64,000 nt of DNA, taken from contig JAFUTO010000015.1 of NCBI GenBank assembly GCA_017484205.1, positions 1,836-65,835 of the forward strand. Reading direction: 5' to 3'. The position numbers were made by a program, and so were the translations under genes. Each line of letters begins with the position of its first letter. Positions within the stretch are counted from its first letter, which is position 1. Source of the DNA: Bacilli bacterium (GTDB lineage: Bacteria > Bacillota_I > Bacilli_A > RF39 > UBA660). The notes under the pieces are model-generated. The model searched no databases, had not been told where the DNA came from, and saw nothing but the letters and a program-made list of their open reading frames with translations. This document shows positions 7,054 to 47,596 of the stretch, in pieces.

Positions 7054-7425
7054 ATGAAAAATAACAAAGGATTTACATTGATAGAATTACTTACTATTAT
7101 TATAGTATTAGGTATTATTATTGTAATTGCATTCCCATTACTTGCAGATACAGTAAAACTTAATCGTGAAAAAGCTTATAATAAGCAAGTTGATTTTGCC
7201 GAATCAGCTGCAAAACAATGGAGCGCTAACAATGATTATAAAATATCATATAATGAGGATTACTATGTATCTATTGCTGAACTTATAGAAAATGGATATA
7301 TAGATCAAGATGAACTAATTAATCCTATAACTAATGAACCAATGACAGGTTGTGTAAAAATATCTTATGATAATATTTATAATTCTTTTGAATATAAGTA
7401 TGGGGAATATGCTGAATGCAATTAA
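7054..7425 (+). CDS. prepilin-type N-terminal cleavage/methylation domain protein (type IV pilin or competence pseudopilin-like)
   Basis: Class III signal KG|FTLIELL plus a hydrophobic helix. C-terminal Cys pair (C...C), a typical pilin disulfide. Confidence 0.7.
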   Translation: MKNNKGFTLIELLTIIIVLGIIIVIAFPLLADTVKLNREKAYNKQVDFAESAAKQWSANNDYKISYNEDYYVSIAELIENGYIDQDELINPITNEPMTGCVKISYDNIYNSFEYKYGEYAECN

Positions 7426-7426
7426 A

Positions 7427-7450
7427 AAGAGAACTATGTTCTCTTTTTTT
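7427..7450 (+). terminator. rho-independent terminator
   Basis: Stem aagagaac/gttctctt with loop tat, followed by a T7 run. Confidence 0.55.
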
Positions 7451-7625
7451 TCTATGAATACTTTGCGGAAATATTCATTTATATAATGGTATATTTTCTT
7501 TTAAAATATACAAAAATAATGTATAATTAAAGATAGTTAAAAAAGTTTTAATCTCTAGTACTAGTAGATTATGGTAAAAAAAAGTTTAAGAATAAAATAT
7601 ATTAGATATATTTGGAGGTGAATTT

Positions 7626-8816
7626 ATGAATAGAGAAGATTTTAATATGCTTAGTAATAATATTATATATTTAGATAATGGTGCCACTACTTTGAAACCT
7701 AAATTATTATCAGAGGTTACATCTGATTATTATAATAATTATTCGGTTAATGCACATCGTGGAGATTATGACCTTAGTTTAAAAGTAGATGCAGCTATAG
7801 AACATACAAGAGAGTTAGTCAAAGAACTTATAAATGCTGATTCTATAAAAGAGATAGTTTTTACAAGTGGAACTACAGCTTCTATGAATCAAATTGTATT
7901 TGGTTATTGTAACTACTTTTTAGAATTAAATGATGAAGTTTTGATTACAGAGGCAGAACATGCATCTAATGCACTTCCATGGTTTGAATTGCAAAGTACT
8001 AAGCATATAATTGTAAAATCTATTCCTTTAGAAAATAATAAAGTAACATTAGAGAATGTTAAAAGAATGGTTAATGAAAAGACTAAAGTAATTTCTCTTG
8101 CGATGGTTACTAATGTATTAGGTGATATAAGACCTATAAAGGAAATAATAGAATTTGCTCATGAAAGAGGTATTATTGTTATTATTGATGGTGCCCAAGC
8201 AGTACCACATATGAAAGTTGATGTACAAGATTTAGATGCTGACTTTTTAGTTTTCTCCGCACATAAAATGTGTGGACCTACTGGTGTAGGTGTATTATAT
8301 GCTAAATATCAGTATATGAATAATATGTATCCTACTGTATTTGGTGGTGGTATGAATTCATATTTTGAAAGTGATGGAACAAGAAAATATAGTAATGTAC
8401 CAACAAGATTTGAACCAGGTACACCAAATGTAGAAGGTATAATAGGTTTTGGATATATTATAGAATATCTTAATAAAATAGGTATGGATAATATTCATAA
8501 ATATGAGTTAGAATTAAAGGATTATGCTTTAAAGAAATTAAAAGGAATAAAAAATATTAAAATATATAATGAAAATACAGATAGTGGAATTATTGTATTT
8601 AATTTAGATGATATTTTTGCTCAAGATTTAGCTGTATATTTAAATAAATATAATATATGTGTTAGAGCAGGTAATCATTGCGCTAAGATGGTACATGATA
8701 TTATTGATGTCAATAATACTGTAAGAGTATCATTATATTTCTATAATAATAAGGAAGATATAGATGCATTAGTAGATGCATTAAATAATCCTAATATAAA
8801 AAATGAAATTATATAG
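7626..8816 (+). CDS. cysteine desulfurase (class V aminotransferase, SufS/CsdA family)
   Basis: GGAGGTGA RBS. PLP-lysine region SAHKMCGPTGVGVLY. Catalytic Cys in the HCA context near the C-terminus. Confidence 0.8.
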   Translation: MNREDFNMLSNNIIYLDNGATTLKPKLLSEVTSDYYNNYSVNAHRGDYDLSLKVDAAIEHTRELVKELINADSIKEIVFTSGTTASMNQIVFGYCNYFLELNDEVLITEAEHASNALPWFELQSTKHIIVKSIPLENNKVTLENVKRMVNEKTKVISLAMVTNVLGDIRPIKEIIEFAHERGIIVIIDGAQAVPHMKVDVQDLDADFLVFSAHKMCGPTGVGVLYAKYQYMNNMYPTVFGGGMNSYFESDGTRKYSNVPTRFEPGTPNVEGIIGFGYIIEYLNKIGMDNIHKYELELKDYALKKLKGIKNIKIYNENTDSGIIVFNLDDIFAQDLAVYLNKYNICVRAGNHCAKMVHDIIDVNNTVRVSLYFYNNKEDIDALVDALNNPNIKNEII

Positions 8817-38220: not shown

Positions 38221-39639
38221 ATGCAAAATAAAGCAATTACAAGTAGAGATGTTGATTTTGGTAAATGGTATACTGATGTTGTAAGAGCAGCTAAACTAGC
38301 TAATTATTCAAATGTTAAAGGATGTATTACAATAGAACCTAATGGATATGCGATTTGGGAACGTATTCAAAGTGTTTTAGATGCTAAATTTAAAGAATTA
38401 GGTCACAAAAATGTATATATGCCAGTATTAATTCCAGAAAATTTAATGAAAAAAGAAGGTGAATTAATAAATGGTTTTGCACCTGAAGTAGCATGGGTTA
38501 CACAAGGTGGAGAAAAAGAATTAGAAGAACGTATGTGCATCAGACCTACAAGTGAAACATTATTTAGTGATTATTATAGCAGTGTTGTTAGATCATATAA
38601 GGATCTACCTATGAAATATAATCAATGGTGTAATGTAATGAGATGGGAAAAGGAAACTAGACCATTTTTAAGAAGTAGAGAATTTTTATGGCAAGAAGGT
38701 CATACAATTCATGCAACTGAAGCAGAAGCTATAGAGGAAGTAAATCAAATGCTAGAAGTATATAAATGGTTCTTTGAAGAATATTTGGCTATACCAGTTA
38801 TTACGGGTAAGAAAACAGATAAAGAGAAATTTGCTGGTGCTGAATATACTTTAACAGTAGAAGCATTAATGTATAATGGTGTATGTTTGCAATCAGGAAC
38901 TTCACATTATTTTGGTCAAAAATTTTCTAAAGCATATGATATAACATTCGCGAATAAAGATAATAAATTAGAACATGTATATCAAACAAGTTGGGGCGTT
39001 AGTACAAGAATGATTGGTGGATTAATTATGGTTCATAGTGATGATGCTGGATTAGTATTACCACCTAAAATAGCACCTACACAAGTTGTAATTATTCCAA
39101 TAGGTAATAGTTCAAAAGTTAATTATTTAGTAGAAAAATATTCAGAAGAATTAAAGGGTAAATATTCTATTACAATTGATGATTCTGATAAATCTCCAGG
39201 ATTTAAGTTTGCTGAAGCTGAGGTAAATGGTATACCAGTTCGTATTGAAATAGGGGAAAGAGATTTAGAAAATGATCATATTACATTAGTTAGAAGAGAT
39301 ACTAGAGAAAGAATAACAGTATCTAAAAATTGTGATATAGTAGCTGAAGTAACTAATTTACTAAATACTATCCAAAAAGATATGTATAATAGAGCTTTAG
39401 CAAGAAATAATGCATATACTTTTGAAGCACATAATTTAGATGAAGTTAAAAAAATTATGGATGTTCATCCAGGATTTATTAAAGGTATGTGGTGTGGTTC
39501 TAGAGAATGTGAAGATAAGATGAAAGAAATAAAAGGTCTTAAATCTAGATGTATTGTTAATGATGGTAAAATTGATGATAAATGTATTGTGTGTGGTCGT
39601 GATGCTAAAGACTTAGTATATTGGGGTATACAATATTGA
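38221..39639 (+). CDS. proS: prolyl-tRNA synthetase, archaeal/eukaryote-like type
   Basis: AAGGAGGA RBS. Class II aaRS motifs and a C-terminal zinc-binding Cys cluster. 472 aa, with no bacterial-type editing insertion. Confidence 0.85.
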   Translation: MQNKAITSRDVDFGKWYTDVVRAAKLANYSNVKGCITIEPNGYAIWERIQSVLDAKFKELGHKNVYMPVLIPENLMKKEGELINGFAPEVAWVTQGGEKELEERMCIRPTSETLFSDYYSSVVRSYKDLPMKYNQWCNVMRWEKETRPFLRSREFLWQEGHTIHATEAEAIEEVNQMLEVYKWFFEEYLAIPVITGKKTDKEKFAGAEYTLTVEALMYNGVCLQSGTSHYFGQKFSKAYDITFANKDNKLEHVYQTSWGVSTRMIGGLIMVHSDDAGLVLPPKIAPTQVVIIPIGNSSKVNYLVEKYSEELKGKYSITIDDSDKSPGFKFAEAEVNGIPVRIEIGERDLENDHITLVRRDTRERITVSKNCDIVAEVTNLLNTIQKDMYNRALARNNAYTFEAHNLDEVKKIMDVHPGFIKGMWCGSRECEDKMKEIKGLKSRCIVNDGKIDDKCIVCGRDAKDLVYWGIQY

Positions 39640-39823: not shown

Positions 39824-39863
39824 GTCCTCGTAGCTCAGTAGGATAGAGCGATCGCCTCCTAAG
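39824..39863 (+). pseudogene. 5' half of a split tRNA-Arg(CCU) gene, ending in the anticodon loop (attL side)
   Basis: gtcctcg acceptor 5' strand, D-arm gctc/gagc, anticodon stem atcgc, loop ctcctaa. No T-arm follows. Its partners are at 47551-47596. Confidence 0.7.
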
Positions 39864-39918
39864 TAAGTGGCTATGAGGAAAACATAAAAATAATTCCTTG
39901 CAAAGCAAGGAAATACCT

Positions 39919-39995
39919 GTCCTTGTAACTCAGTTGGATAGAGTATCCCTCTCCTAAAGGGAAAGTCGGAGGTTCAAATCCTCTCAAGGACACCA
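39919..39995 (+). tRNA. tRNA-Arg(CCU), intact, encoded inside the islet
   Basis: Complete cloverleaf: acceptor gtccttg/caaggac, D-arm actc/gagt, anticodon arm tccct-ctCCTaa-aggga, T-arm ggagg-ttcaaat-cctct, encoded CCA. Confidence 0.8.
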
Positions 39996-40263
39996 TTTTT
40001 GATTATAAAAGTCTTGAAATTAAGGGGTTTCAAGACTTTTTTACATATTTAAAAAAGTGTTATAAACTATCACAACTTGATACAAGGTACCTTCTAGTTT
40101 GGCACTTTTAATGGCACTCGTTGAATATTCAATAATTATCTATCAAAGTATTATAAATAAAGGGCAAAATACTTATGAGTGTTTTAAAAGTTGTTTGAAA
40201 TGGCACTTTTTTACTAAAAAAAGATAAAAATGTATTAAAATTATTAATAGTAAAGGTGGAAAA

Positions 40264-40494
40264 ATGAAAGATAAGCAATTTAAAGATTTAAGATTTAACA
40301 TAACTCAAGATATGAATAATATGATTATTGAAATAATAGTTATAAGACAATTATTAAAAGAAAATAAGGTTAGTAAGAAAGATAGAAAACTTGTTGAAAA
40401 AGAGTTGAAAGAATTAACCGATTTATTTGTATTAGAGTTTAGAAAAAATAATGTTGAAGAAAGAAAATTGTATAATGATTTAATGAATAAGTAA
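40264..40494 (+). CDS. hypothetical protein (76 aa)
   Basis: AAAGGTGGA RBS. Followed by a bidirectional terminator. Confidence 0.4.
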   Translation: MKDKQFKDLRFNITQDMNNMIIEIIVIRQLLKENKVSKKDRKLVEKELKELTDLFVLEFRKNNVEERKLYNDLMNK

Positions 40495-40501
40495 AAAAAA
40501 T

Positions 40502-40537
40502 AAGAGAGATAAGCAATTTAAAACTTATCTCTCTTTT
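40502..40537. terminator. bidirectional rho-independent terminator between convergent genes
   Basis: 12-bp stem aagagagataag/cttatctctctt, flanked by an A8 run and a T-run. Confidence 0.55.
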
Positions 40538-40889
40538 ACTTACAATGATTATGATTTTTGTATGTTTCTATTGGTCGCCCATATTGATTAGATACATCTA
40601 AACAAAAAGGACAACGATATATAAAACCATCTCTTATTAAAGTGTCTTTAATTTTACCATATACAAAAGTATCTTTAAACATATCAATATATTTTTTCTT
40701 TTCTTTAAAGTTCTCGTATTCTTGTTTATAGGTATCAATTCTTTTTTGCTTTTCTCTTTTTTCATCAAGTTTTTTTAGGTAGTCATCAATTTTCTTTTCA
40801 AGTGTTATTTGTAAGTATTCATCATCAAGACCTAGTGTAATTGTTCTATCAGTTAAACCTAACATATTTAATATATCTTTATCTTTCAT
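40536..40889 (-). CDS. hypothetical protein with C-terminal Cys/His zinc-finger-like motif
   Basis: CPFC...H.HC at the C-terminus. Overlaps the upstream HTH gene. Confidence 0.45.
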   Translation of the reverse strand: MKDKDILNMLGLTDRTITLGLDDEYLQITLEKKIDDYLKKLDEKREKQKRIDTYKQEYENFKEKKKYIDMFKDTFVYGKIKDTLIRDGFIYRCPFCLDVSNQYGRPIETYKNHNHCK

Positions 40890-41061
40890 TTTTAACCCCT
40901 AAATTATCTAAACACTTTTTTAAATCTTCTTGACTAACAATATATTGTCTTCCTATAAAATGTGCTTTTAAAGTATGTTCTTTAATCATTTTTCTTAAAT
41001 ATGGTATTGGTGTCTTTAATAGACAACTTATCTCTTTTAATGTGTAATATTGATTACTCAT
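40879..41061 (-). CDS. excisionase-family helix-turn-helix DNA-binding protein
   Basis: 60 aa. YTLKEISCLLKTPIPYLRKMIKE resembles the MerR/Xis-type HTH. A palindromic operator lies just upstream. Confidence 0.5.
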   Translation of the reverse strand: MSNQYYTLKEISCLLKTPIPYLRKMIKEHTLKAHFIGRQYIVSQEDLKKCLDNLGVKNER

Positions 41062-41073
41062 CTTTTTATCATC

Positions 41074-41096
41074 TCCTTACTATTTAGTAGTAAGAT
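41074..41096. promoter_or_regulatory. palindromic putative operator (TTACTATTTAGTAGTAA) at the promoter of the HTH gene
   Basis: Perfect 6-bp arms ttacta/tagtaa separated by a 5-bp spacer (ttact-a-TTTAG-tagtaa), 13 bp upstream of the start codon. Confidence 0.4.
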
Positions 41097-41426
41097 GATA
41101 CTTAAAATCAAAAAGTTATTAATAGTATATATATAGTATATAAATAGTGAAATACCCTATAAAATCAAAGATTAATTCAAAATTAAACACCTCAAAAAAT
41201 ACCAAATTCCGCTATCTAAAATCGTTGAAAATATCTTTATAGTGCAATTATATTACTAGGGGCTAAAAAGTGTCTTAAATCGGCTTAAAATGGTGGTGTT
41301 TTAATTTAAGGGTACGGGTGGGGTTAAGTTAGAAAAGGTATTATAATCTCAAAATGGGGTATTTGCCCTAAATTAAATCTAGTTAAATAAAAAAAGCATA
41401 TAGCAATTACTATATACTTATTTACA

Positions 41427-41828
41427 TTACTTTAATATTTCGTTTTCGTATAATCTATCAATATTTTTTTCATACCATATTTTTGACTCATTATGAGAAC
41501 TTGCTGAAAAAATCCCACCAACTAATATAATAGCAATTCCTATAAACATAATAGTTACATTAAATCCTAGTATACAACTAAAAAATAGAAAAAGCATACC
41601 AAAGATAAGAATAAATATACCAAAAAATCTACTTGGGACATTCCACCATTCTTTGTTTAATTTTCTATATGCTACTATCTTATATCTTTCTTCTTGTGTT
41701 AATTCTTCCCATTTTTTCTTATTCATTGTTTTAATTTTTTCTTGAAAAATTGGGTTGCCACAATGAATACAAGTTGTTGCTTTATCACTTATTTCTTTTC
41801 CACATTCACTACATTTAATTAAAGCCAT
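41427..41828 (-). CDS. zinc-ribbon domain membrane protein
   Basis: N-terminal CSECGK...CIHCGNP zinc ribbon, then two TM helices. Confidence 0.5.
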   Translation of the reverse strand: MALIKCSECGKEISDKATTCIHCGNPIFQEKIKTMNKKKWEELTQEERYKIVAYRKLNKEWWNVPSRFFGIFILIFGMLFLFFSCILGFNVTIMFIGIAIILVGGIFSASSHNESKIWYEKNIDRLYENEILK

Positions 41829-41829
41829 T

Positions 41830-42162
41830 TTATTTACTCCTTTTATTTTTATTTATTTCATATAGATTTTTAAGTGTATATGCTTTCCACTCTAAAAATG
41901 GTGTGCTTAATATAGCACCAATTACAAATAAAGCACTAGATATTAAGCAAGTAATAAAAACTCCTGTATTTTCACTTAAATTGCCTAGACCAACAAAGAA
42001 TAATATAATTGCAACAATAAAAGATATTATTCTAATAACCTTTGAAAGTTTTAAAAAGTAATTAATATTTTTCTCTGTACCATTTAATATATTATCGTAT
42101 GTTTCGTTAAACAAGTTGCTTGTATCGTTTTTATCTAATTCATCAAAAAAATTATCTTTCAT
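41830..42162 (-). CDS. small membrane protein (2 TM), hypothetical
   Basis: Translationally coupled to the flanking genes. Confidence 0.4.
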   Translation of the reverse strand: MKDNFFDELDKNDTSNLFNETYDNILNGTEKNINYFLKLSKVIRIISFIVAIILFFVGLGNLSENTGVFITCLISSALFVIGAILSTPFLEWKAYTLKNLYEINKNKRSK

Positions 42163-42829
42163 TTTTTAAACTCCTTTCATTTATACTTTTTCCATACAAG
42201 TATAAGAATAGAACAAAAGAACAAGATTTAATTATTCCGTTAATTGTGCCTAAAAAATTAAATGTAATTAGTACATAAGGGTTATAAGTTATGTATTCAT
42301 TATATTTTAGATATGAATATGAAGATATAACAAAAGGTATCAAACTTATTAAGGTTAAAATGATTAACAATATCATTAAGAACTTATAAGGCATTTTCTT
42401 TTTGTTTAATATTCCATAAACCATTATTATTTCTAAAACCATAAATAAAGCATTTGATATTAAATTAAACCACATTTGAAACTTGCCTAAACTACTTACA
42501 CTTATTGAAATAGAATGTATTTGATTGATGTAATTTACTTGCCCGACAATATAAATTATTAATGATACTATTAACCAAATAAATAAGATAAGATTTAATG
42601 TTCTCATATTCTTTTCTTTTTTCTTTAAAATTATTAGTAAATAAATAATTATATATAAATTAACATTTGTGAAAAAACCGACAATAGTTGTAAGTGTTCT
42701 AGTTGTTTTAATTGAATTAGGCATATCACTAACAAAAACAATATTAGAAATAGTTGAAATAGCAAAACCAATAATAATTGTTGCTATTGTAATTATTGCT
42801 AGTGTTTTAGGTTTTAAAATCTTCTTCAT
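42152..42829 (-). CDS. polytopic membrane protein (6 TM), hypothetical
   Basis: 225 aa. First gene of the three-gene minus-strand membrane-protein operon, divergent from the XRE gene. Confidence 0.45.
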   Translation of the reverse strand: MKKILKPKTLAIITIATIIIGFAISTISNIVFVSDMPNSIKTTRTLTTIVGFFTNVNLYIIIYLLIILKKKEKNMRTLNLILFIWLIVSLIIYIVGQVNYINQIHSISISVSSLGKFQMWFNLISNALFMVLEIIMVYGILNKKKMPYKFLMILLIILTLISLIPFVISSYSYLKYNEYITYNPYVLITFNFLGTINGIIKSCSFVLFLYLYGKSINERSLKNER

Positions 42830-42946
42830 TTAATCACTCCTTTCTATTCTATTATAGCATAACTTACTCGAATAGAGTAAGTATATTTAGGGCTATTAGT
42901 GAGAAAATTATATATAGAGTTAGTATATAGAGTTAGGTGGTGAATT

Positions 42947-43207
42947 ATGTTTGATAGAAATAATGAGAATTATGTTTATGAGTTAGTATCTAAAAATATT
43001 AAAAAACAAAGACAATTAAAAGGGCTAACACAAGAACAATTAGCAGATAAAATGAATTATTCAACACAATTTATATCTAATATTGAAAGTAAAAATCATC
43101 AAACATTTTCACTTGGTACAATATGGAGATTAGCACTTGTCCTTGATATAAGTATTAAAGATTTATTTGATGAAGAAGAACAAAAAAATAAGAGTGATGA
43201 AGACTAA
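42947..43207 (+). CDS. XRE-family helix-turn-helix transcriptional regulator
   Basis: LKGLTQEQLADKMNYSTQFISNIE is a classic Cro/C1-type HTH. RBS present. Confidence 0.7.
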   Translation: MFDRNNENYVYELVSKNIKKQRQLKGLTQEQLADKMNYSTQFISNIESKNHQTFSLGTIWRLALVLDISIKDLFDEEEQKNKSDED

Positions 43208-43527
43208 AAAATCTTTATCACTCTTTTAATATATATAAACACCTTATAGGGTGGTATTTTTTTATTTATATTTATCTTTACAAAAGGTATTTAATATATT
43301 TTATAATAATTATATCTTATGGAAGATAATTTATATTATTATATATTTAACTTAATATATATTATTTTAGTAAATATATTTATATATATTATTTTTATTA
43401 ATTTACTTAATAGTATCTAACTTAATATAAAAATATAAAAATTAATTACTCTATATATAATTATATGTATAAATATAATTAATCAAATAAAAAGGAATAG
43501 ACTTAATATAAGTCCACTCCATAGAGA
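43208..43527. repeat. extremely AT-rich (~90% AT) intergenic region with four copies of an ACTTAATA(T/G) motif
   Basis: Motif copies near 43349, 43405, 43421 and 43501. Confidence 0.4.
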
Positions 43528-43980
43528 TTATATATTATTTAATATATTATAAAACTTATCTAACATATCTTTCATTTCATTAGGTATAGTATTTAATTTA
43601 TTTAATGATTTCTTTATATCTAGTATATTTCCTATTAGTACCCTTAATGTTATTTCTTCATAAGCTGTTTTAATATCATATTTATTTTTATAAGCATTAA
43701 ATAAATTAGAGTTAGTAGATATTAAGTCTATTGTTCCATTAGTAATAAGTAATAGTAATAATAAACTTTTATATTTTTCTATTTCATCATTAGAATTAAT
43801 ATTAAAATTAAAATCTAAATCAAATAATTTATATGTATTTTCTAAATAAGGTATTATATATAACTTAACATTTTTATCAGTATTCTCAATATTAATACTA
43901 TTTGTTAAATAGTCTTGTTCTAAATTATGTTGTTTAATAAAATCATCACATAATAAATCTAATATATTTTGTTTTCTCAT
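43528..43980 (-). CDS. hypothetical protein (150 aa)
   Basis: Last gene of the minus-strand cargo operon. Lys/Asn/Ile-rich. No known motifs. Confidence 0.45.
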   Translation of the reverse strand: MRKQNILDLLCDDFIKQHNLEQDYLTNSINIENTDKNVKLYIIPYLENTYKLFDLDFNFNINSNDEIEKYKSLLLLLLITNGTIDLISTNSNLFNAYKNKYDIKTAYEEITLRVLIGNILDIKKSLNKLNTIPNEMKDMLDKFYNILNNI

Positions 43981-43981
43981 A

Positions 43982-44896
43982 TTAACTATTCCTTTCGTAT
44001 AAGTCTTTAAATTGTTCTATAAGTTCTTTAATATTTGAAAATGCTAAATCAATATTATCATTATCAATTAAATTACTAATATCTTTTAATTTATTAAATA
44101 CATTTATATAAGTTATATCTTTTACAAAGGAAATATCTTGATTTAAAAACTCTTTTAAGAAATAATTAAATAAGTTTACAAGGCATTTATCATTGTATAT
44201 GTAATAATCTACCATTGAATTATTTAAGTCTTTAATTTTATTTAAAATATCAAATATGAAATATCTTTGCTCTGTATCTTCATTAAGATTAATACCTGTT
44301 CTTTTTTCATAAGATATTATAAAATCATTGTTTAATTTTTTTTGCTTATCACTATCAAATAGAGTTGATGATTTTATATCTAAATCATTTATTATTTTTA
44401 AATTAACTTTTTTGGGTAGTTTATCATTTGGCTTTTTGATATATGGCATATCTTTACTATCAATTAATTTATCAAAATTAAGACTATCAAGTATATTCAT
44501 AAAATACTCGGTATCTTTTTCAAGATTTTTAAGATTATATTTAGTCTTTTTAGTTGTATATAATTCTTTCATCTCATTTAATTCATCAAGTGTATTTTCT
44601 AAACTATCATATATCAAGATACACTCACTATCATAACACTTTTTAATCTTGTTTTTATATTTGTTTAAATAAGCATTTATTAAGTGCATTATATTATCTA
44701 CTTTTTGATTAATAGGTATATAGTTTAAAGAAAATAAGATATTATTTAAACTAATATAAGTGTTATATGTTTCAAATATCAATTCATATTGTAAGGGGTA
44801 GTCTTTAATTTTTATATTAAAAGCACTTTCAAACTTTTTAATATAAATAGATTTATTAAAATATTTCTTATCAAGTTTATTATGATATTTTCCCAT
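43982..44896 (-). CDS. hypothetical protein (304 aa)
   Basis: Translationally coupled to the 150-aa gene. No recognisable domain. Confidence 0.5.
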   Translation of the reverse strand: MGKYHNKLDKKYFNKSIYIKKFESAFNIKIKDYPLQYELIFETYNTYISLNNILFSLNYIPINQKVDNIMHLINAYLNKYKNKIKKCYDSECILIYDSLENTLDELNEMKELYTTKKTKYNLKNLEKDTEYFMNILDSLNFDKLIDSKDMPYIKKPNDKLPKKVNLKIINDLDIKSSTLFDSDKQKKLNNDFIISYEKRTGINLNEDTEQRYFIFDILNKIKDLNNSMVDYYIYNDKCLVNLFNYFLKEFLNQDISFVKDITYINVFNKLKDISNLIDNDNIDLAFSNIKELIEQFKDLYERNS

Positions 44897-44940
44897 AGTA
44901 CCAACTCCATATATAAATTATAACACAAAAAAAGAATAGT

Positions 44941-45150
44941 TTATGCTATTCCAAGTCTTAATAATTCTTTTTTTATTAATTCATCATAAGTTGTTTTAAC
45001 ATTATTTATCATTAATTCTAAATAATCAGTAAATACATTGTTAAATATCTCATTAAAAGTATTCATATCATTTTCATAAGGTGTATTTTTTAAACCATTT
45101 TCTATTATTTCACAAACATAATTTTCATCATACATTTTATAATCTTTCAT
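44941..45150 (-). CDS. hypothetical protein (69 aa)
   Basis: Small ORF in the cargo operon. Confidence 0.4.
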   Translation of the reverse strand: MKDYKMYDENYVCEIIENGLKNTPYENDMNTFNEIFNNVFTDYLELMINNVKTTYDELIKKELLRLGIA

Positions 45151-45166
45151 ATTATCAATTCCTTTC

Positions 45167-45355
45167 TTAATTTATTCTATATAATGTAAAATTGCTAAAA
45201 TCGTTATTTTTAATGGCTCTTTTTAACAATTCTCCTTTATAATCAATTCTTTCATAAGCAATTAAAGATTTATCATTTTCAATAATGAACTTTAATTCCT
45301 CATCAGTCATATTTTTAATACCTTTCTTTTTTAATTCTTCAATTCTATTTTTCAT
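45167..45355 (-). CDS. hypothetical protein (62 aa)
   Basis: Small ORF in the cargo operon. Confidence 0.4.
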   Translation of the reverse strand: MKNRIEELKKKGIKNMTDEELKFIIENDKSLIAYERIDYKGELLKRAIKNNDFSNFTLYRIN

Positions 45356-45469
45356 AATATCAAATCCTTTCTTTCTATATATTTTTAATTACCTTTACAA
45401 GCAAGATTAAACTTTATAAGTCTAAAATTGCTTGTATAGGGTTTTAAATCGTTTTAACTAACTTTTAGA

Positions 45470-45706
45470 TTAGTCTAATTGAGTTATAATATCGTTTAGT
45501 TTTATAAAATCATCATATTGTTTTTGAATAATCTTATAAAAACTATTTAATCTATTATCAAGATTATTTTTTGAATTATTGTTTTTAAACTCAAGATTAA
45601 GATATTTATAAAACTTATTTAATTCTTTAGTGCTTAACTCTTTACCAGCATACTTATTAACCATAAGTTTTATCATTTCTTGTCTTATGTCTAAAATATC
45701 TATCAT
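45470..45706 (-). CDS. hypothetical protein (78 aa)
   Basis: First gene of the cargo operon. AGGAG RBS. Confidence 0.4.
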   Translation of the reverse strand: MIDILDIRQEMIKLMVNKYAGKELSTKELNKFYKYLNLEFKNNNSKNNLDNRLNSFYKIIQKQYDDFIKLNDIITQLD

Positions 45707-45984
45707 TTTAACAACTCCTTTCGTGATTTTACAAAACTCGTCGACTTGCTTTGTGATTTCATCATACTAGGTTTTTGAGTAAAAAAAAATAGTTTTTCAT
45801 CAACTTTTTTGGGTTATATTTTACTTATTTTTGTCCGAAATAATTAATTTTTTTGCTCTTTTTTTCTTTATTTTCAATACCCCATATTTTAAAAATGGGG
45901 CTTTTTTGGTTGCTCGTTTTGGTACCTCTTTTTAGGTATAGTGTAGTTGTTCGAACAAGAAATATTTTGAAAGGAGCAACTTTT

Positions 45985-46182
45985 ATGACAAAGAAAATAT
46001 GTGATATTCAAGAATTATCAAGTTATTTAAAAATATCAGTATCAGAGATTAGAAAATTAGTAAGAAGTAAAAGAATACCACATTTTAGAATTGGTAATAG
46101 ATTAAAATTTGATTTAGTAAAAATTAATTCTTGGGTTGAAGATTTAGAGGCACAAGAGGGAAAAAATCTATTATTTTTCTAG
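45985..46182 (+). CDS. excisionase/AlpA-like HTH DNA-binding protein
   Basis: AAAGGAG RBS before the ATG at 45985. LSSYLKISVSEIRKLVRSKRIPHFRIGNRLKF matches the excisionase-family HTH. The track's N-terminal extension from 45853 is probably not coding. Confidence 0.6.
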   Translation: MTKKICDIQELSSYLKISVSEIRKLVRSKRIPHFRIGNRLKFDLVKINSWVEDLEAQEGKNLLFF

Positions 46183-46270
46183 GAAAAAAGGGCAAAATAT
46201 GGTATAATTATATTAGATAATTATTGAAGTATTTTGCTCGTAAGATTATTGAAAGGAGTTAAAAATCTTA

Positions 46271-47400
46271 TGAGTATAACAAGATTATCAAATAATAAAT
46301 ATAAAATAATTATTGAACTAGGTTATGACATTTTAGGTAATAGAAAAAGATTAACAAAGACTGTCAATGGCACTAAAAATGAGGCAATTAAAATTGAAGC
46401 CGATTTAAAAAGCAAATATTATCATATAGGAAAAGCAAACAATATAAGTGATTTAACATTTGAAGAATATAGCCAAATATTCCTATCAAAATATTGTGAT
46501 AAAATCAGTTTAGTTACAAAAGATGGCTACGAAAAATCACTTAAAAGAATATTGCCGATAATAGGAAAGATTAAACTTAATAAGATAACTCCACTTGTAT
46601 TAGATAATATGTATCAAAAATTAAAGATAGGAAAAAATAGTCAAGTGTTAGGTTATCACTCTATGTATGGTTATTATAAACTTATTAATGTAATGTTTAA
46701 TCAAGCCATTAAATGGGAAGTATTAGATAAAAACCCTAATTTAAAAGCCAATAAACCTAAAAGAGAAAAAGCCGAAAGAAAGTATTATGATTTAGAACAA
46801 GTACAAAAGTTATTATCTTGTTTAGAGTATGAAAATATTAAATATAGAACTCTTATAACTCTTGCATTAGATAGTGGAGCAAGAAGAAGTGAAATATGTG
46901 CTTTAAGGTGGAGTGATATTGATTTTGATACTAACTTAATGAGAATTGATAAATCTTTAAAGGTTATTAGAGGTGTTGTTGATGAGGCAACAACTAAAAC
47001 TGAAAGTTCTAAAAGAGAAATAATGTTAAGTAATTCAACCATTGACTTATTAAAGGAGTATAAAGAGTGGCAAGATAATTATATTAAATGGGTTGGCAAG
47101 AAATGGAAAGGTACTAATAGAGTATTTATATCTCAATATGGAGATTATATGCACCCTAGCACTTGCGACCATATAATGAGAAAAATAGTTAAAAAATATG
47201 AGTTAGCCCCTATATGCTTTCACGAATTAAGACATACTTCGGCTAGTATCTTAATACATAAAGGTATAAACCCTAAAGCAGTAAGTCAAAGATTAGGTCA
47301 TGCCGATACAAGTATCACAATGGAAATATATTCACATACTTTTGATATAACCAAAAAAGAAAGTGCTATGGCTTTTGATGAAGTATTAAAAAAAGCATAA
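46271..47400 (+). CDS. tyrosine-type site-specific integrase
   Basis: AAAGGAG RBS. N-terminal arm-binding-like region. Catalytic R...HELRHT...Y motifs (GHADTSITMEIYSH). Confidence 0.85.
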
Positions 47401-47550
47401 ATTGGCACTAAAAAAATTGAAATGGCACCAATTTTCGGCACTCGGTTAAAAAATAAAGTTCAATAATTTAAGAAAAATGATAGAAAAACCCTTTTAAAAA
47501 AAGGAGTTTCAAGATATAATAATGGTGTTCTTGTGAGGGGAAGCAAGTCC

Positions 47551-47596
47551 CCTCCTAAGCGATAGGTCGTTGGTTCGATTCCAATCGAGGACGCCA
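47551..47596 (+). pseudogene. 3' half of the split tRNA-Arg(CCU) (attR side)
   Basis: Anticodon-stem 3' strand gcgat, T-arm gttgg-ttcgatt-ccaat, acceptor cgaggac, then gCCA. These pair perfectly with the 5' half at 39824-39863. Confidence 0.7.

Follow-up and report, generated by a model that had tools for sequence, protein, structure and literature searches.

Five orphan genes as a candidate backbone module of an undescribed family of small integrative elements in uncultured gut Bacilli

Introduction

When a block of unannotated genes lies beside an integrase gene, is it cargo that the element carries, or part of the element itself? The question is raised by a locus in a 64,000-nt stretch of DNA from a Bacilli bacterium (GTDB lineage Bacillota_I; Bacilli_A; RF39; UBA660; assembly GCA_017484205.1, contig JAFUTO010000015.1, positions 1,836 to 65,835). 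We call this whole stretch the window and give all coordinates as window positions. An element of ~7.7 kb (39864-47550) sits there inside a split tRNA-Arg(CCT) gene, and it encloses the following five open reading frames (ORFs).

43528-43980, minus strand: o150, 150 aa; partner of o304, with a seven-helix model
43982-44896, minus strand: o304, 304 aa; hallmark protein of the element family
44941-45150, minus strand: o69, 69 aa; rare small ORF of unit 1, with a ribosome-binding site
45167-45355, minus strand: o62, 62 aa; variable small ORF of unit 1
45470-45706, minus strand: o78, 78 aa; first gene of unit 1; candidate DNA-binding regulator, small helical protein

The initial annotation, made from the sequence alone, took the block for the payload of a minimal integrative element, in the configuration typical of anti-phage defence, abortive-infection or toxin systems. 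Comparison with related loci leads us to another answer, which we hold with moderate confidence: the five-gene block belongs to the conserved backbone of a new family of elements of ~7.5-10 kb, similar to phage satellites or to integrative and mobilizable elements (IMEs), and serves the element itself. Behind this answer stand the conserved order of the genes across loci, the swapping of modules between elements, the layout of promoters and terminators, signs of purifying selection and the lack of any match to known families.

Related loci share the block and differ in another slot

We gathered ~30 related loci through homologues of o304, all on metagenome-assembled genomes or metagenome contigs of uncultured gut Bacilli (the assemblies are labelled Candidatus Ventrenecus or Coprovivens), and clustered the ORFs of 17 of them. 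A homologue of o304 is found in all 17 clustered loci. The genes o150 and o78, an XRE-family gene and three genes of the far end (o60, o117 and o76) are each found in 12-16 of the 17, in constant order; for o78 the count is at least 12 by clustering, and tblastn adds more. The common layout is: recombinase leftward; o78, small ORF(s), o304 and its partner rightward; XRE leftward; a slot, o60 and o117 rightward; and o76 leftward. This architecture is kept down to protein identities of 23-30%. The partner gene is always adjacent to o304 on its 3' side, translationally coupled or nearly so, and encodes 126-424 aa in the most distant relatives.

The small ORFs between o78 and o304 are less constant. 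Homologues of o62 are restricted to loci of the L001-L004 type, with unrelated small ORFs at that position elsewhere, and the o69 cluster has two members, no other family locus having o69.

The recombinase differs between loci: a tyrosine integrase with Xis in six, and a large serine recombinase in 10. The tyrosine type is inserted in tRNA-Arg, tRNA-Lys or tRNA-Ser genes, and the serine type in the 5' end of another serine recombinase gene or in a collagen-like gene. The slot between the XRE gene and o60 varies in what it encodes: a Type III restriction-modification (R-M) system in L020 (PADLOC 1.9e-22 and 1.4e-64), a 264-aa protein with a DnaB-like replicative helicase (Pfam 2.4e-43, phrog_19 2.7e-46) in L016-18 and L202, in L205 and L001 proteins that are HTH_36 or weakly RepO/Rep3-like, and elsewhere membrane proteins that combine a Zn-ribbon with thioredoxin or DUF4352 domains, rotamase and SHOCT proteins. 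The slot of the window shares only the Zn-ribbon N-terminus with other loci.

Our criterion for defence cargo was variation among related islets of the same integrase and backbone. The five-gene block behaves in the opposite way: o78, o304 and o150 are constant and syntenic while the recombinase type and the XRE-o60 slot vary, and PADLOC has no match for it. The proposals that the block is the payload of the islet, and that it is a typical defence or toxin cargo, thus did not survive the comparison. Because the neighbours of the block are constant and the XRE-o60 slot is variable, we assign the block to the backbone and place the cargo elsewhere.

Modules are shuffled between elements. For example, o78, o304 and o150 of L011 are 96-100% identical to those of the window, but its integrase is only 41% identical; between L001 and L017 the recombinase and right-end segments are 98-99% identical against 84% for the stretch from o304 to the Zn-ribbon gene. 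The 8.87-kb element of L001 is 99.9% identical to that of L003 while the right flanks of the two differ, a sign that it has moved recently.

The five ORFs are genes under purifying selection

The initial description of the block as such has held up well. The ORF list gives the five minus-strand ORFs of 78, 62, 69, 304 and 150 aa at exactly the coordinates first proposed, and each is preceded by a ribosome-binding site of the GGAG/AAAGGA type. The composition, described as rich in Lys, Asn, Ile and Tyr and more AT-rich than the surroundings, matches our measurements: the five genes have 16-20% GC (against ~25% for the window) and these four residues make up 41-46% of the proteins. The proposed translational coupling of o304 and o150 is likewise supported, by a 1-nt gap and by an o150 ribosome-binding site within the 3' end of o304.

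We accept the five ORFs as real genes because they have homologues of conserved length (204 for o304 and 102 for o150), low dN/dS values and independent gene calls, the exact sequences of all five being called as genes in public assemblies. Across o78, o62, o304 and o150, dN/dS against relatives is 0.05-0.47 (0.05-0.26 for o78, ~0.35 for o62 and 0.19-0.37 for o304), i.e. these four genes evolve under purifying selection. The family is common in gut metagenomes of humans and animals, and the exact o78 sequence by itself is found on 225 contigs. Four residues of o78 are invariant (N43, S45, N47 and R52), and the protein has a conserved polar helix (N/S/K/N/R/S).

The core proteins have no detectable relatives

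The five proteins had been called wholly uncharacterized and without recognizable motif, and every library we searched agrees. Pfam, PHROGs, PADLOC and NCBIfam gave only sub-threshold noise for them (e.g. o78 against IncFII_repA at 0.0039, and o62 against a holin C-terminus). Nothing in PADLOC-DB v2 was significant for any of the five, the top match, of Csn2 to the 69-aa ORF (E=0.0028), not being credible, and PADLOC had no credible match either for o117, o76 and the three membrane ORFs of the slot. Ten distant relatives of o304 had no match in Pfam, and a profile built from the o304 alignment had none among PDB sequences. Searches of INPHARED and PLSDB with tblastn, and scans of IMG/VR, with o304, o150, o78 and o117 found no relatives. 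An o304 profile search of 1.84 billion cluster representatives returned 53 clusters only (50% identity), which marks a narrow family, and a second profile search seeded with distant members found no tie to annotated families.

Structure prediction and fold searches, which had been suggested as a check, gave the same answer. The AF2 (AlphaFold2) model of o304 has a mean predicted local distance difference test (pLDDT) score of 75.5 and two helical domains (approximately residues 15-138 and 182-300); in the model both the N-terminus and the linker lack order, yet they are basic and highly conserved. The o150 model (pLDDT 89.8; predicted template modelling score 0.81) has seven helices. Both models are thus all-helical. 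Foldseek found no fold match for the o304 model in PDB or BFVD, and none for the o150 model in PDB. Homology to ordinary phage structural or replication proteins, which would have spoken against the payload proposal, was absent from PHROGs, INPHARED, IMG/VR and the fold searches. In short, o78, o304 and o150 are without detectable relative in the protein, structure, phage and plasmid libraries searched.

Several specific identities were tried and set aside. Paralogy between o150 and a domain of o304 was rejected (hhalign probability 1%), as was an HUH-type Rep of rolling-circle replication or a relaxase at the o304 N-terminus (the HUH motif is absent and the fold is all-helical). An inovirus or plasmavirus reading was rejected by eye: coat-like genes are absent, and the ORF translations contain no ATPase motif of the Walker-A/Zot type. 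For a type II toxin-antitoxin system there was no Pfam, NCBIfam or PADLOC match, and the o304 and o150 models match no PDB fold.

The block reads as two transcription units

The block had been described as a tightly packed operon of five genes. All five are indeed on the minus strand and o304 and o150 are coupled, but a single operon does not fit a 114-nt gap after o78 and an internal terminator and promoter before o304. Two features mark the limits of the o304-o150 pair.

44917-44951, minus strand: internal hairpin and T-run, then, directly upstream of o304, a predicted extended -10 promoter (TGtTATAAT)
43494-43520, minus strand: intrinsic terminator closing o304-o150; 12-pair stem and T-run, beginning 8 nt past the o150 stop

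The 3' end of o69 lies inside the hairpin (44951-44934; hairpin and T-run together span 44951-44927). The extended -10 element follows (TG at 44925-44924, TATAAT at 44922-44917), and the o304 ribosome-binding site comes next. The succession of hairpin, T-run and TGnTA(T/A)AAT is found upstream of o304 homologues in 16 of the 17 loci, the most distant included. Because of the 114-nt gap, the conserved terminator and promoter ahead of o304 and the terminator after o150, the block reads as two transcription units, o78-o62-o69 (unit 1) and o304-o150. No other part of the element is as AT-rich as the latter.

A conserved control block lies upstream of o78

Between o78 and the recombinase genes there are 278 nt with the following features.

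45726-45925: hyper-conserved non-coding control block between o78 and xis/int
45731-45754: dyad ACAAAAC-TC-GTCGAC-TT-GCTTTGT, directly downstream of the o78 -10-like element
45766-45761, minus strand: -10-like TATGAT for o78, conserved, sequence-read
45829-45844: invariant 16-mer TTTTGTCCGAAATAAT, exact in all 23 family loci scanned, with both recombinase types
45880-45900, with T-run to 45907, plus strand: terminator hairpin, stem pairs kept across lineages
45953-45966: second dyad, TTG-CTTAAG-CAA or TTG-TTCGAA-CAA, before the recombinase
Ahead of whichever recombinase is present (xis in the window): promoter-like TTGCTC-N17-TATAGT/TATTCT

These 278 nt are 87% identical in DNA to L001, L003 and L017, whereas the flanking genes compared with L001 share 48-65% protein identity and have near-saturated synonymous sites (pS 0.6-0.75). 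The control block is thus conserved above the level of synonymous sites. In the terminator the stems CCCCAT/ATGGGG, GGTCTAT/ATAGGTC and GGCTTAT/ATAGGCC show compensatory changes. The two dyads flank the divergent promoters (L001-L021, L202-L206).

The first dyad has the form ACAAA-N-[palindrome]-N-TTTGT, with fixed outer arms and a centre that changes between lineages: GTCGAC, GGTACC, GTGCAC, GGGCCC, GTTGCAAC, GAGCTC and ACCGGT in seven lineages, each a perfect palindrome, with an imperfect centre (GGTTCC) in L018 alone. A random 6-mer is palindromic with a chance of 1/64 (our own calculation), so the palindromes appear to be selected. Since the loop of a hairpin needs no self-complementarity, the dyad would be a better fit for a DNA-binding protein that acts as a dimer than for an RNA hairpin. 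The centre follows the o78 lineage in part only. The palindromic centres of both dyads all resemble restriction sites.

No Rfam family matches the control block. RNAalifold found no conserved structure apart from the terminator, and the single-sequence z-score on the plus strand is -0.18. In IMG/VR the 16-mer has 53 matches with random flanks, i.e. chance matches, and blastn of the control block against phages and plasmids found nothing; with these two results, the idea that the block is shared with a helper (as a mimic of cos, pac or oriT) was rejected. Scans for targets of a small RNA gave chance-level complementarity only. One site outside the element, on the proS coding strand (38906-38921), is complementary to the 16-mer at 15 of 16 positions, one G-U pair counted; this is probably chance, because matches with up to three mismatches number five against 2.6 expected. 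The control block may be either a dense array of protein-binding sites or, in addition, the source of a short plus-strand RNA ending at the conserved terminator.

What the block may do

If the block serves the element, its parts could work as follows. Unit 1 (o78 and one or two variable small ORFs) would start at a promoter that overlaps the dyad operator and faces the recombinase promoter across the control block. Being encoded by the first gene after the operator and having a conserved polar helix, o78 may be a small DNA-binding switch protein, by analogy with Cro, Str or AlpA. The o304 and o150 proteins would form a complex, presumably made while the element is integrated, from a promoter of constitutive type, and would serve the element either in the control or immunity of the integrated state or in dealing with a helper or a rival element. 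Given its own promoter and terminator and an AT content above that of all other parts of the element, the pair may also have a resident-state function such as immunity, exclusion, toxin or defence. A bolder version can be offered only tentatively: a new minimalist class of elements in uncultured gut Bacilli with small genomes, run by o78, o304 and o150 together with the control block (possibly with a small RNA) and its lineage-specific dyads, all of them without counterpart among known satellites, IMEs or prophages, in which o304-o150 would act as a resident-state controller or a helper sensor of a new kind.

Several points weigh against an element-serving backbone module. The promoters and the operator are predictions from sequence. 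An own promoter, own terminators and an extra-low GC content, as in o304-o150, are classic features of prophage 'morons' (accessory genes), and a hallmark module may at the same time work as a system of defence or addiction. Of 28 family loci 26 came from the o304 search, so that the presence of o304 in them is by construction and the informative part is the conserved neighbourhood together with the variable other slot. Scans of IMG/VR, phages, the loci and metagenomes found no helper phage, circular form or attP junction: no terminal overlap (as in a circular contig) was seen among the fetched loci, and a degenerate att scan of metagenomes gave only intact tRNA (attB-type) sites among the matches listed. 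On the 5.4-kb contig of L009 (1-2515), o60, o117 and o76 directly adjoin a serine recombinase gene, an order that could be a circular excised form or a tandem copy.

Could o304-o150 then be an anti-phage defence, abortive-infection or toxin-antitoxin pair, which benefits or addicts the host and is kept as the selective reason for the family? We think this unlikely. The pair does have the moron-like autonomy given by an extended -10 promoter of its own and flanking terminators, it has the lowest GC of the element, its two genes are translationally coupled and it is retained in minimal copies without replication genes. Some family members carry defence cargo too, but this cargo and the other variable genes have a slot of their own, while the pair is invariant and syntenic. 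In addition PADLOC has no match for it, the partner shifts between 126 and 424 aa while o304 stays, and we found neither an enzymatic or membrane-effector motif nor a fold match to known effectors.

Somewhat less probable to us is that o304-o150 is the module by which a satellite exploits its helper, binding, once induced, capsid, scaffold, terminase or regulatory proteins of the helper so that the helper is impaired and the element packaged. Helical proteins of this kind are Sid and Psu of P4 and CpmA and CpmB of SaPIs, and o304 and o150 are both predicted to be all-helical. The build of the elements is satellite-like as well: they are small, with an integrase, HTH_17 (AlpA/Xis-like) and XRE proteins, an optional replication module, an R-M slot and no structural genes, and the same ingredients appear in the published definitions of PICMIs (minimalist islands of the chromosome that are inducible by phage; PMC10803314) and StCIs (PMC13376191). 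A helper, however, is not known, the elements have no packaging gene, and neither a relative of the backbone genes nor a copy of the control block is found in IMG/VR or INPHARED phages; there is also no BFVD fold match, and a constitutive-looking promoter is unexpected for a late function.

Least probable is a novel initiator, o304 assisted by o150, that binds an origin at AT-rich repeats downstream of o150 (43260-43490) or in the block upstream of o78, by analogy with the int-divergent early operon of PICIs and PICMIs, in which a primase or Rep gene comes after a regulator and small ORFs: the order of regulator, small ORFs and largest conserved protein, divergent from int, is that of alpA-up1-prim in PICMIs (PMC10803314), o304 has conserved basic disordered segments, ACTTAATAT motifs are repeated in the AT-rich intergenic region and minimal members have no other candidate replication gene, but many members encode a DnaB-like helicase and the 264-aa protein, or HTH_36/RepO-like proteins, in another operon, o304 shows nothing of a winged-helix, HUH, primase or P-loop protein and matches no initiator fold, the spacer between o150 and XRE is only 124 nt in L001, a constitutive promoter would be odd for the initiator of an integrated element, and repeats in DNA of 17% GC are weak evidence.

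The element and its insertion site

The element that carries this probable backbone module has the following further features in the window.

39824-39863, plus strand: 5' half of the split host tRNA-Arg(CCT); attL core CCTCCTAAG at 39855-39863
39919-39995, plus strand: intact tRNA-Arg(CCT) within the element (ARAGORN; Rfam 67.5 bits)
40264-40494, plus strand: o76, terminal backbone gene, read inward; cluster c4, in 14 of 17 loci
40536-40889, minus strand: o117, CxxC protein overlapping o60; far-end backbone gene; invariant C93 and C96
40879-41061, minus strand: o60, HTH_17 protein (Pfam 3.3e-7); far-end backbone gene
41062-41426: non-coding stretch of 365 nt between o60 and the membrane ORFs
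41427-42829, minus strand: variable cargo slot with o225 (multi-pass membrane), o110 (membrane) and o133 (Zn-ribbon and transmembrane segment), from the ORF list
42947-43207, plus strand: XRE-family HTH repressor-like gene (Pfam HTH_3 1.9e-13); in 14 of 17 loci
45985-46182, plus strand: Xis-like HTH_17 protein, 65 aa (Pfam HTH_17 1.5e-10; PHROG excisionase families)
46234-47400, plus strand: tyrosine integrase (Pfam Phage_integrase 5.8e-33; phrog_1 2.9e-73)
47551-47596, plus strand: 3' half of the split host tRNA-Arg(CCT); attR core CCTCCTAAG at 47551-47559

The Pfam and PHROG assignments bear out the reported position of the five-gene block, between the Xis/tyrosine integrase pair and the XRE gene of a minimal integrative element. 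The initial remark that replication, packaging and transfer genes are lacking also stands for this copy, in which Pfam, PHROGs and NCBIfam scans recognized none. The non-coding stretch at 41062-41426 sits where relatives carry DnaB-like helicase or HTH_36/RepO-like genes and is 72-82% conserved in L011-L014; to judge from this, the window copy looks like a derivative without replication genes.

As in other tRNA islands of tyrosine integrases, the integrase gene is at one end and the core CCTCCTAAG is repeated in the tRNA gene. The host tRNA is broken in the anticodon loop. The joined halves give a tRNA-Arg(CCT) that is found intact in other metagenomes (e.g. L125 and L083). At the right junction there is a tRNA-like hybrid (47527-47593) that scores below the Rfam threshold (26.9 bits vs 29). 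The tRNA-Arg(CCT) carried 55 nt inside the left end is complete and divergent in sequence, and no duplicated half restores the host copy; in L012, L013 and L020, too, an intact tRNA comes after a 5' half. TGGCAC repeats close to both ends of the element look like integrase arm sites, and the predicted attP junction of the excised element is ...AAGTCCCCTCCTAAGTAAGTGGCT... The likely start of the integrase is the ATG at 46270 (376 aa), as in the gene call of L005.

The XRE gene and o150 are transcribed towards each other, and the XRE gene and the membrane-protein genes away from each other. At the far end, o60 and o117 belong to clusters c5 and c1, found in 14 and 16 of the 17 loci, respectively. 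The o76 protein is 92% identical to that of L001, against 48-80% for the remainder of that element, and its exact sequence is found on 167 contigs.

Other copies give some further observations on insertion. Versions with a serine recombinase are inserted in a second large serine recombinase gene, at its 5' end (L001, 7147-7163 and 16031-16100; L003, 12914-14678); the target gene in L003 lies in a Tn4451-like unit with TnpV and a relaxase. The copies in L002 and L021 sit in a collagen-like (BclA-type) repeat gene. In L012 a second XRE gene with a divergent promoter region (7107-7730) lies beyond the integrase end and is 84% identical to the XRE gene of the window, a sign that another family member may have integrated there in tandem, at the same tRNA, and left this remnant. 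In the window, nearly all chromosomal genes of at least 120 aa are on the plus strand and the GC skew is strongly positive; the minus-strand genes of the island (40-46 kb) form the sole region of negative skew.

Comparison with known element classes

Phage resistance and gene flow are shaped by small integrating elements such as satellites and IMEs and, to our knowledge, what is known of these comes almost wholly from cultured Proteobacteria and cocci. The function of o78, o304, o150 and the control block would define how a new lineage of elements persists and spreads in bacteria that cannot yet be cultivated. For the annotation of islands, the locus shows that an unannotated block beside an integrase need not be the payload: comparison of islets, not position, sorts cargo from backbone.

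Phage-inducible chromosomal islands (PICIs) of the StCI type are small elements bounded by att sites, with an integrase, an XRE master repressor, an Xis/HTH protein, a replication module in some, a hotspot for R-M or abortive-infection (Abi) systems and no virion genes (PMC13376191). The family described here is like the PICIs (SaPIs and StCIs) in having an integrase, XRE and Xis/HTH proteins, att bounds and a cargo slot, and in lacking structural genes; in the window element the integrase and regulators are seen as Phage_integrase, HTH_3 and two HTH_17 proteins. It is unlike them in that the window copy has no primase/Rep, terS, ppi or cpm homologue: Pfam, PHROGs and NCBIfam show no primase or replicase, and Pfam and PHROGs no match to terminase, Ppi or Cpm families (phrog_57, the small terminase subunit TerS, has a match at 6e-4 that is confined to the HTH of the Xis-like protein). 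Nor are the order and direction of the genes those of PICIs: the repressor of the window is convergent with the core unit, while that of PICIs is divergent, and o78, o304 and o150 have no PICI counterpart in sequence or fold; nor is a helper known.

PICMIs are defined by int, AlpA (PF05930/PF12728) and a DUF3987/DUF5906 primase, lie beside fis and are known from Vibrionaceae (PMC10803314). The likeness is in the minimal gene set, with int divergent from a regulator, variable small ORFs and a larger core gene, in the HTH_17/AlpA protein and in the anti-phage accessories. The window has int and HTH_17, but neither DUF3987/DUF5906 nor fis, its site being tRNA-Arg; unlike PICMIs, the family has no primase, lives in another host phylum and may use a large serine recombinase.

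With IMEs and mobilizable transposons (Tn4451 type, TnpX) the family shares a size of 6-10 kb, the interchangeable use of tyrosine and large serine recombinases and targets in tRNA or conserved genes. It differs in that the family members examined showed no gene of the relaxase, oriT or coupling-protein type. In the window element, Pfam, PHROGs and NCBIfam gave no relaxase match, although sequence alone could miss an oriT; the sole relaxase seen belongs to the Tn4451-like unit beside the L003 copy, itself the insertion target.

Prophage morons, such as rexAB of lambda, or the sie and ltp genes between int and repressor, are closest to the o304-o150 pair itself. Like them, it lies between integrase and repressor, has its own promoter and terminator and a lower GC than its neighbours, and is a pair of ~300 and 150 aa. 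Morons occur sporadically and differ from one prophage to a related one, whereas o304-o150 is universal in its family; o150, unlike RexB, has no transmembrane segments, and there is no PDB fold similarity.

Thus the family resembles satellites and IMEs by organization, yet falls outside PICIs, PICMIs, IMEs and the PADLOC systems as these are defined: it is a previously undescribed family of elements, held together by a core of orphan proteins.

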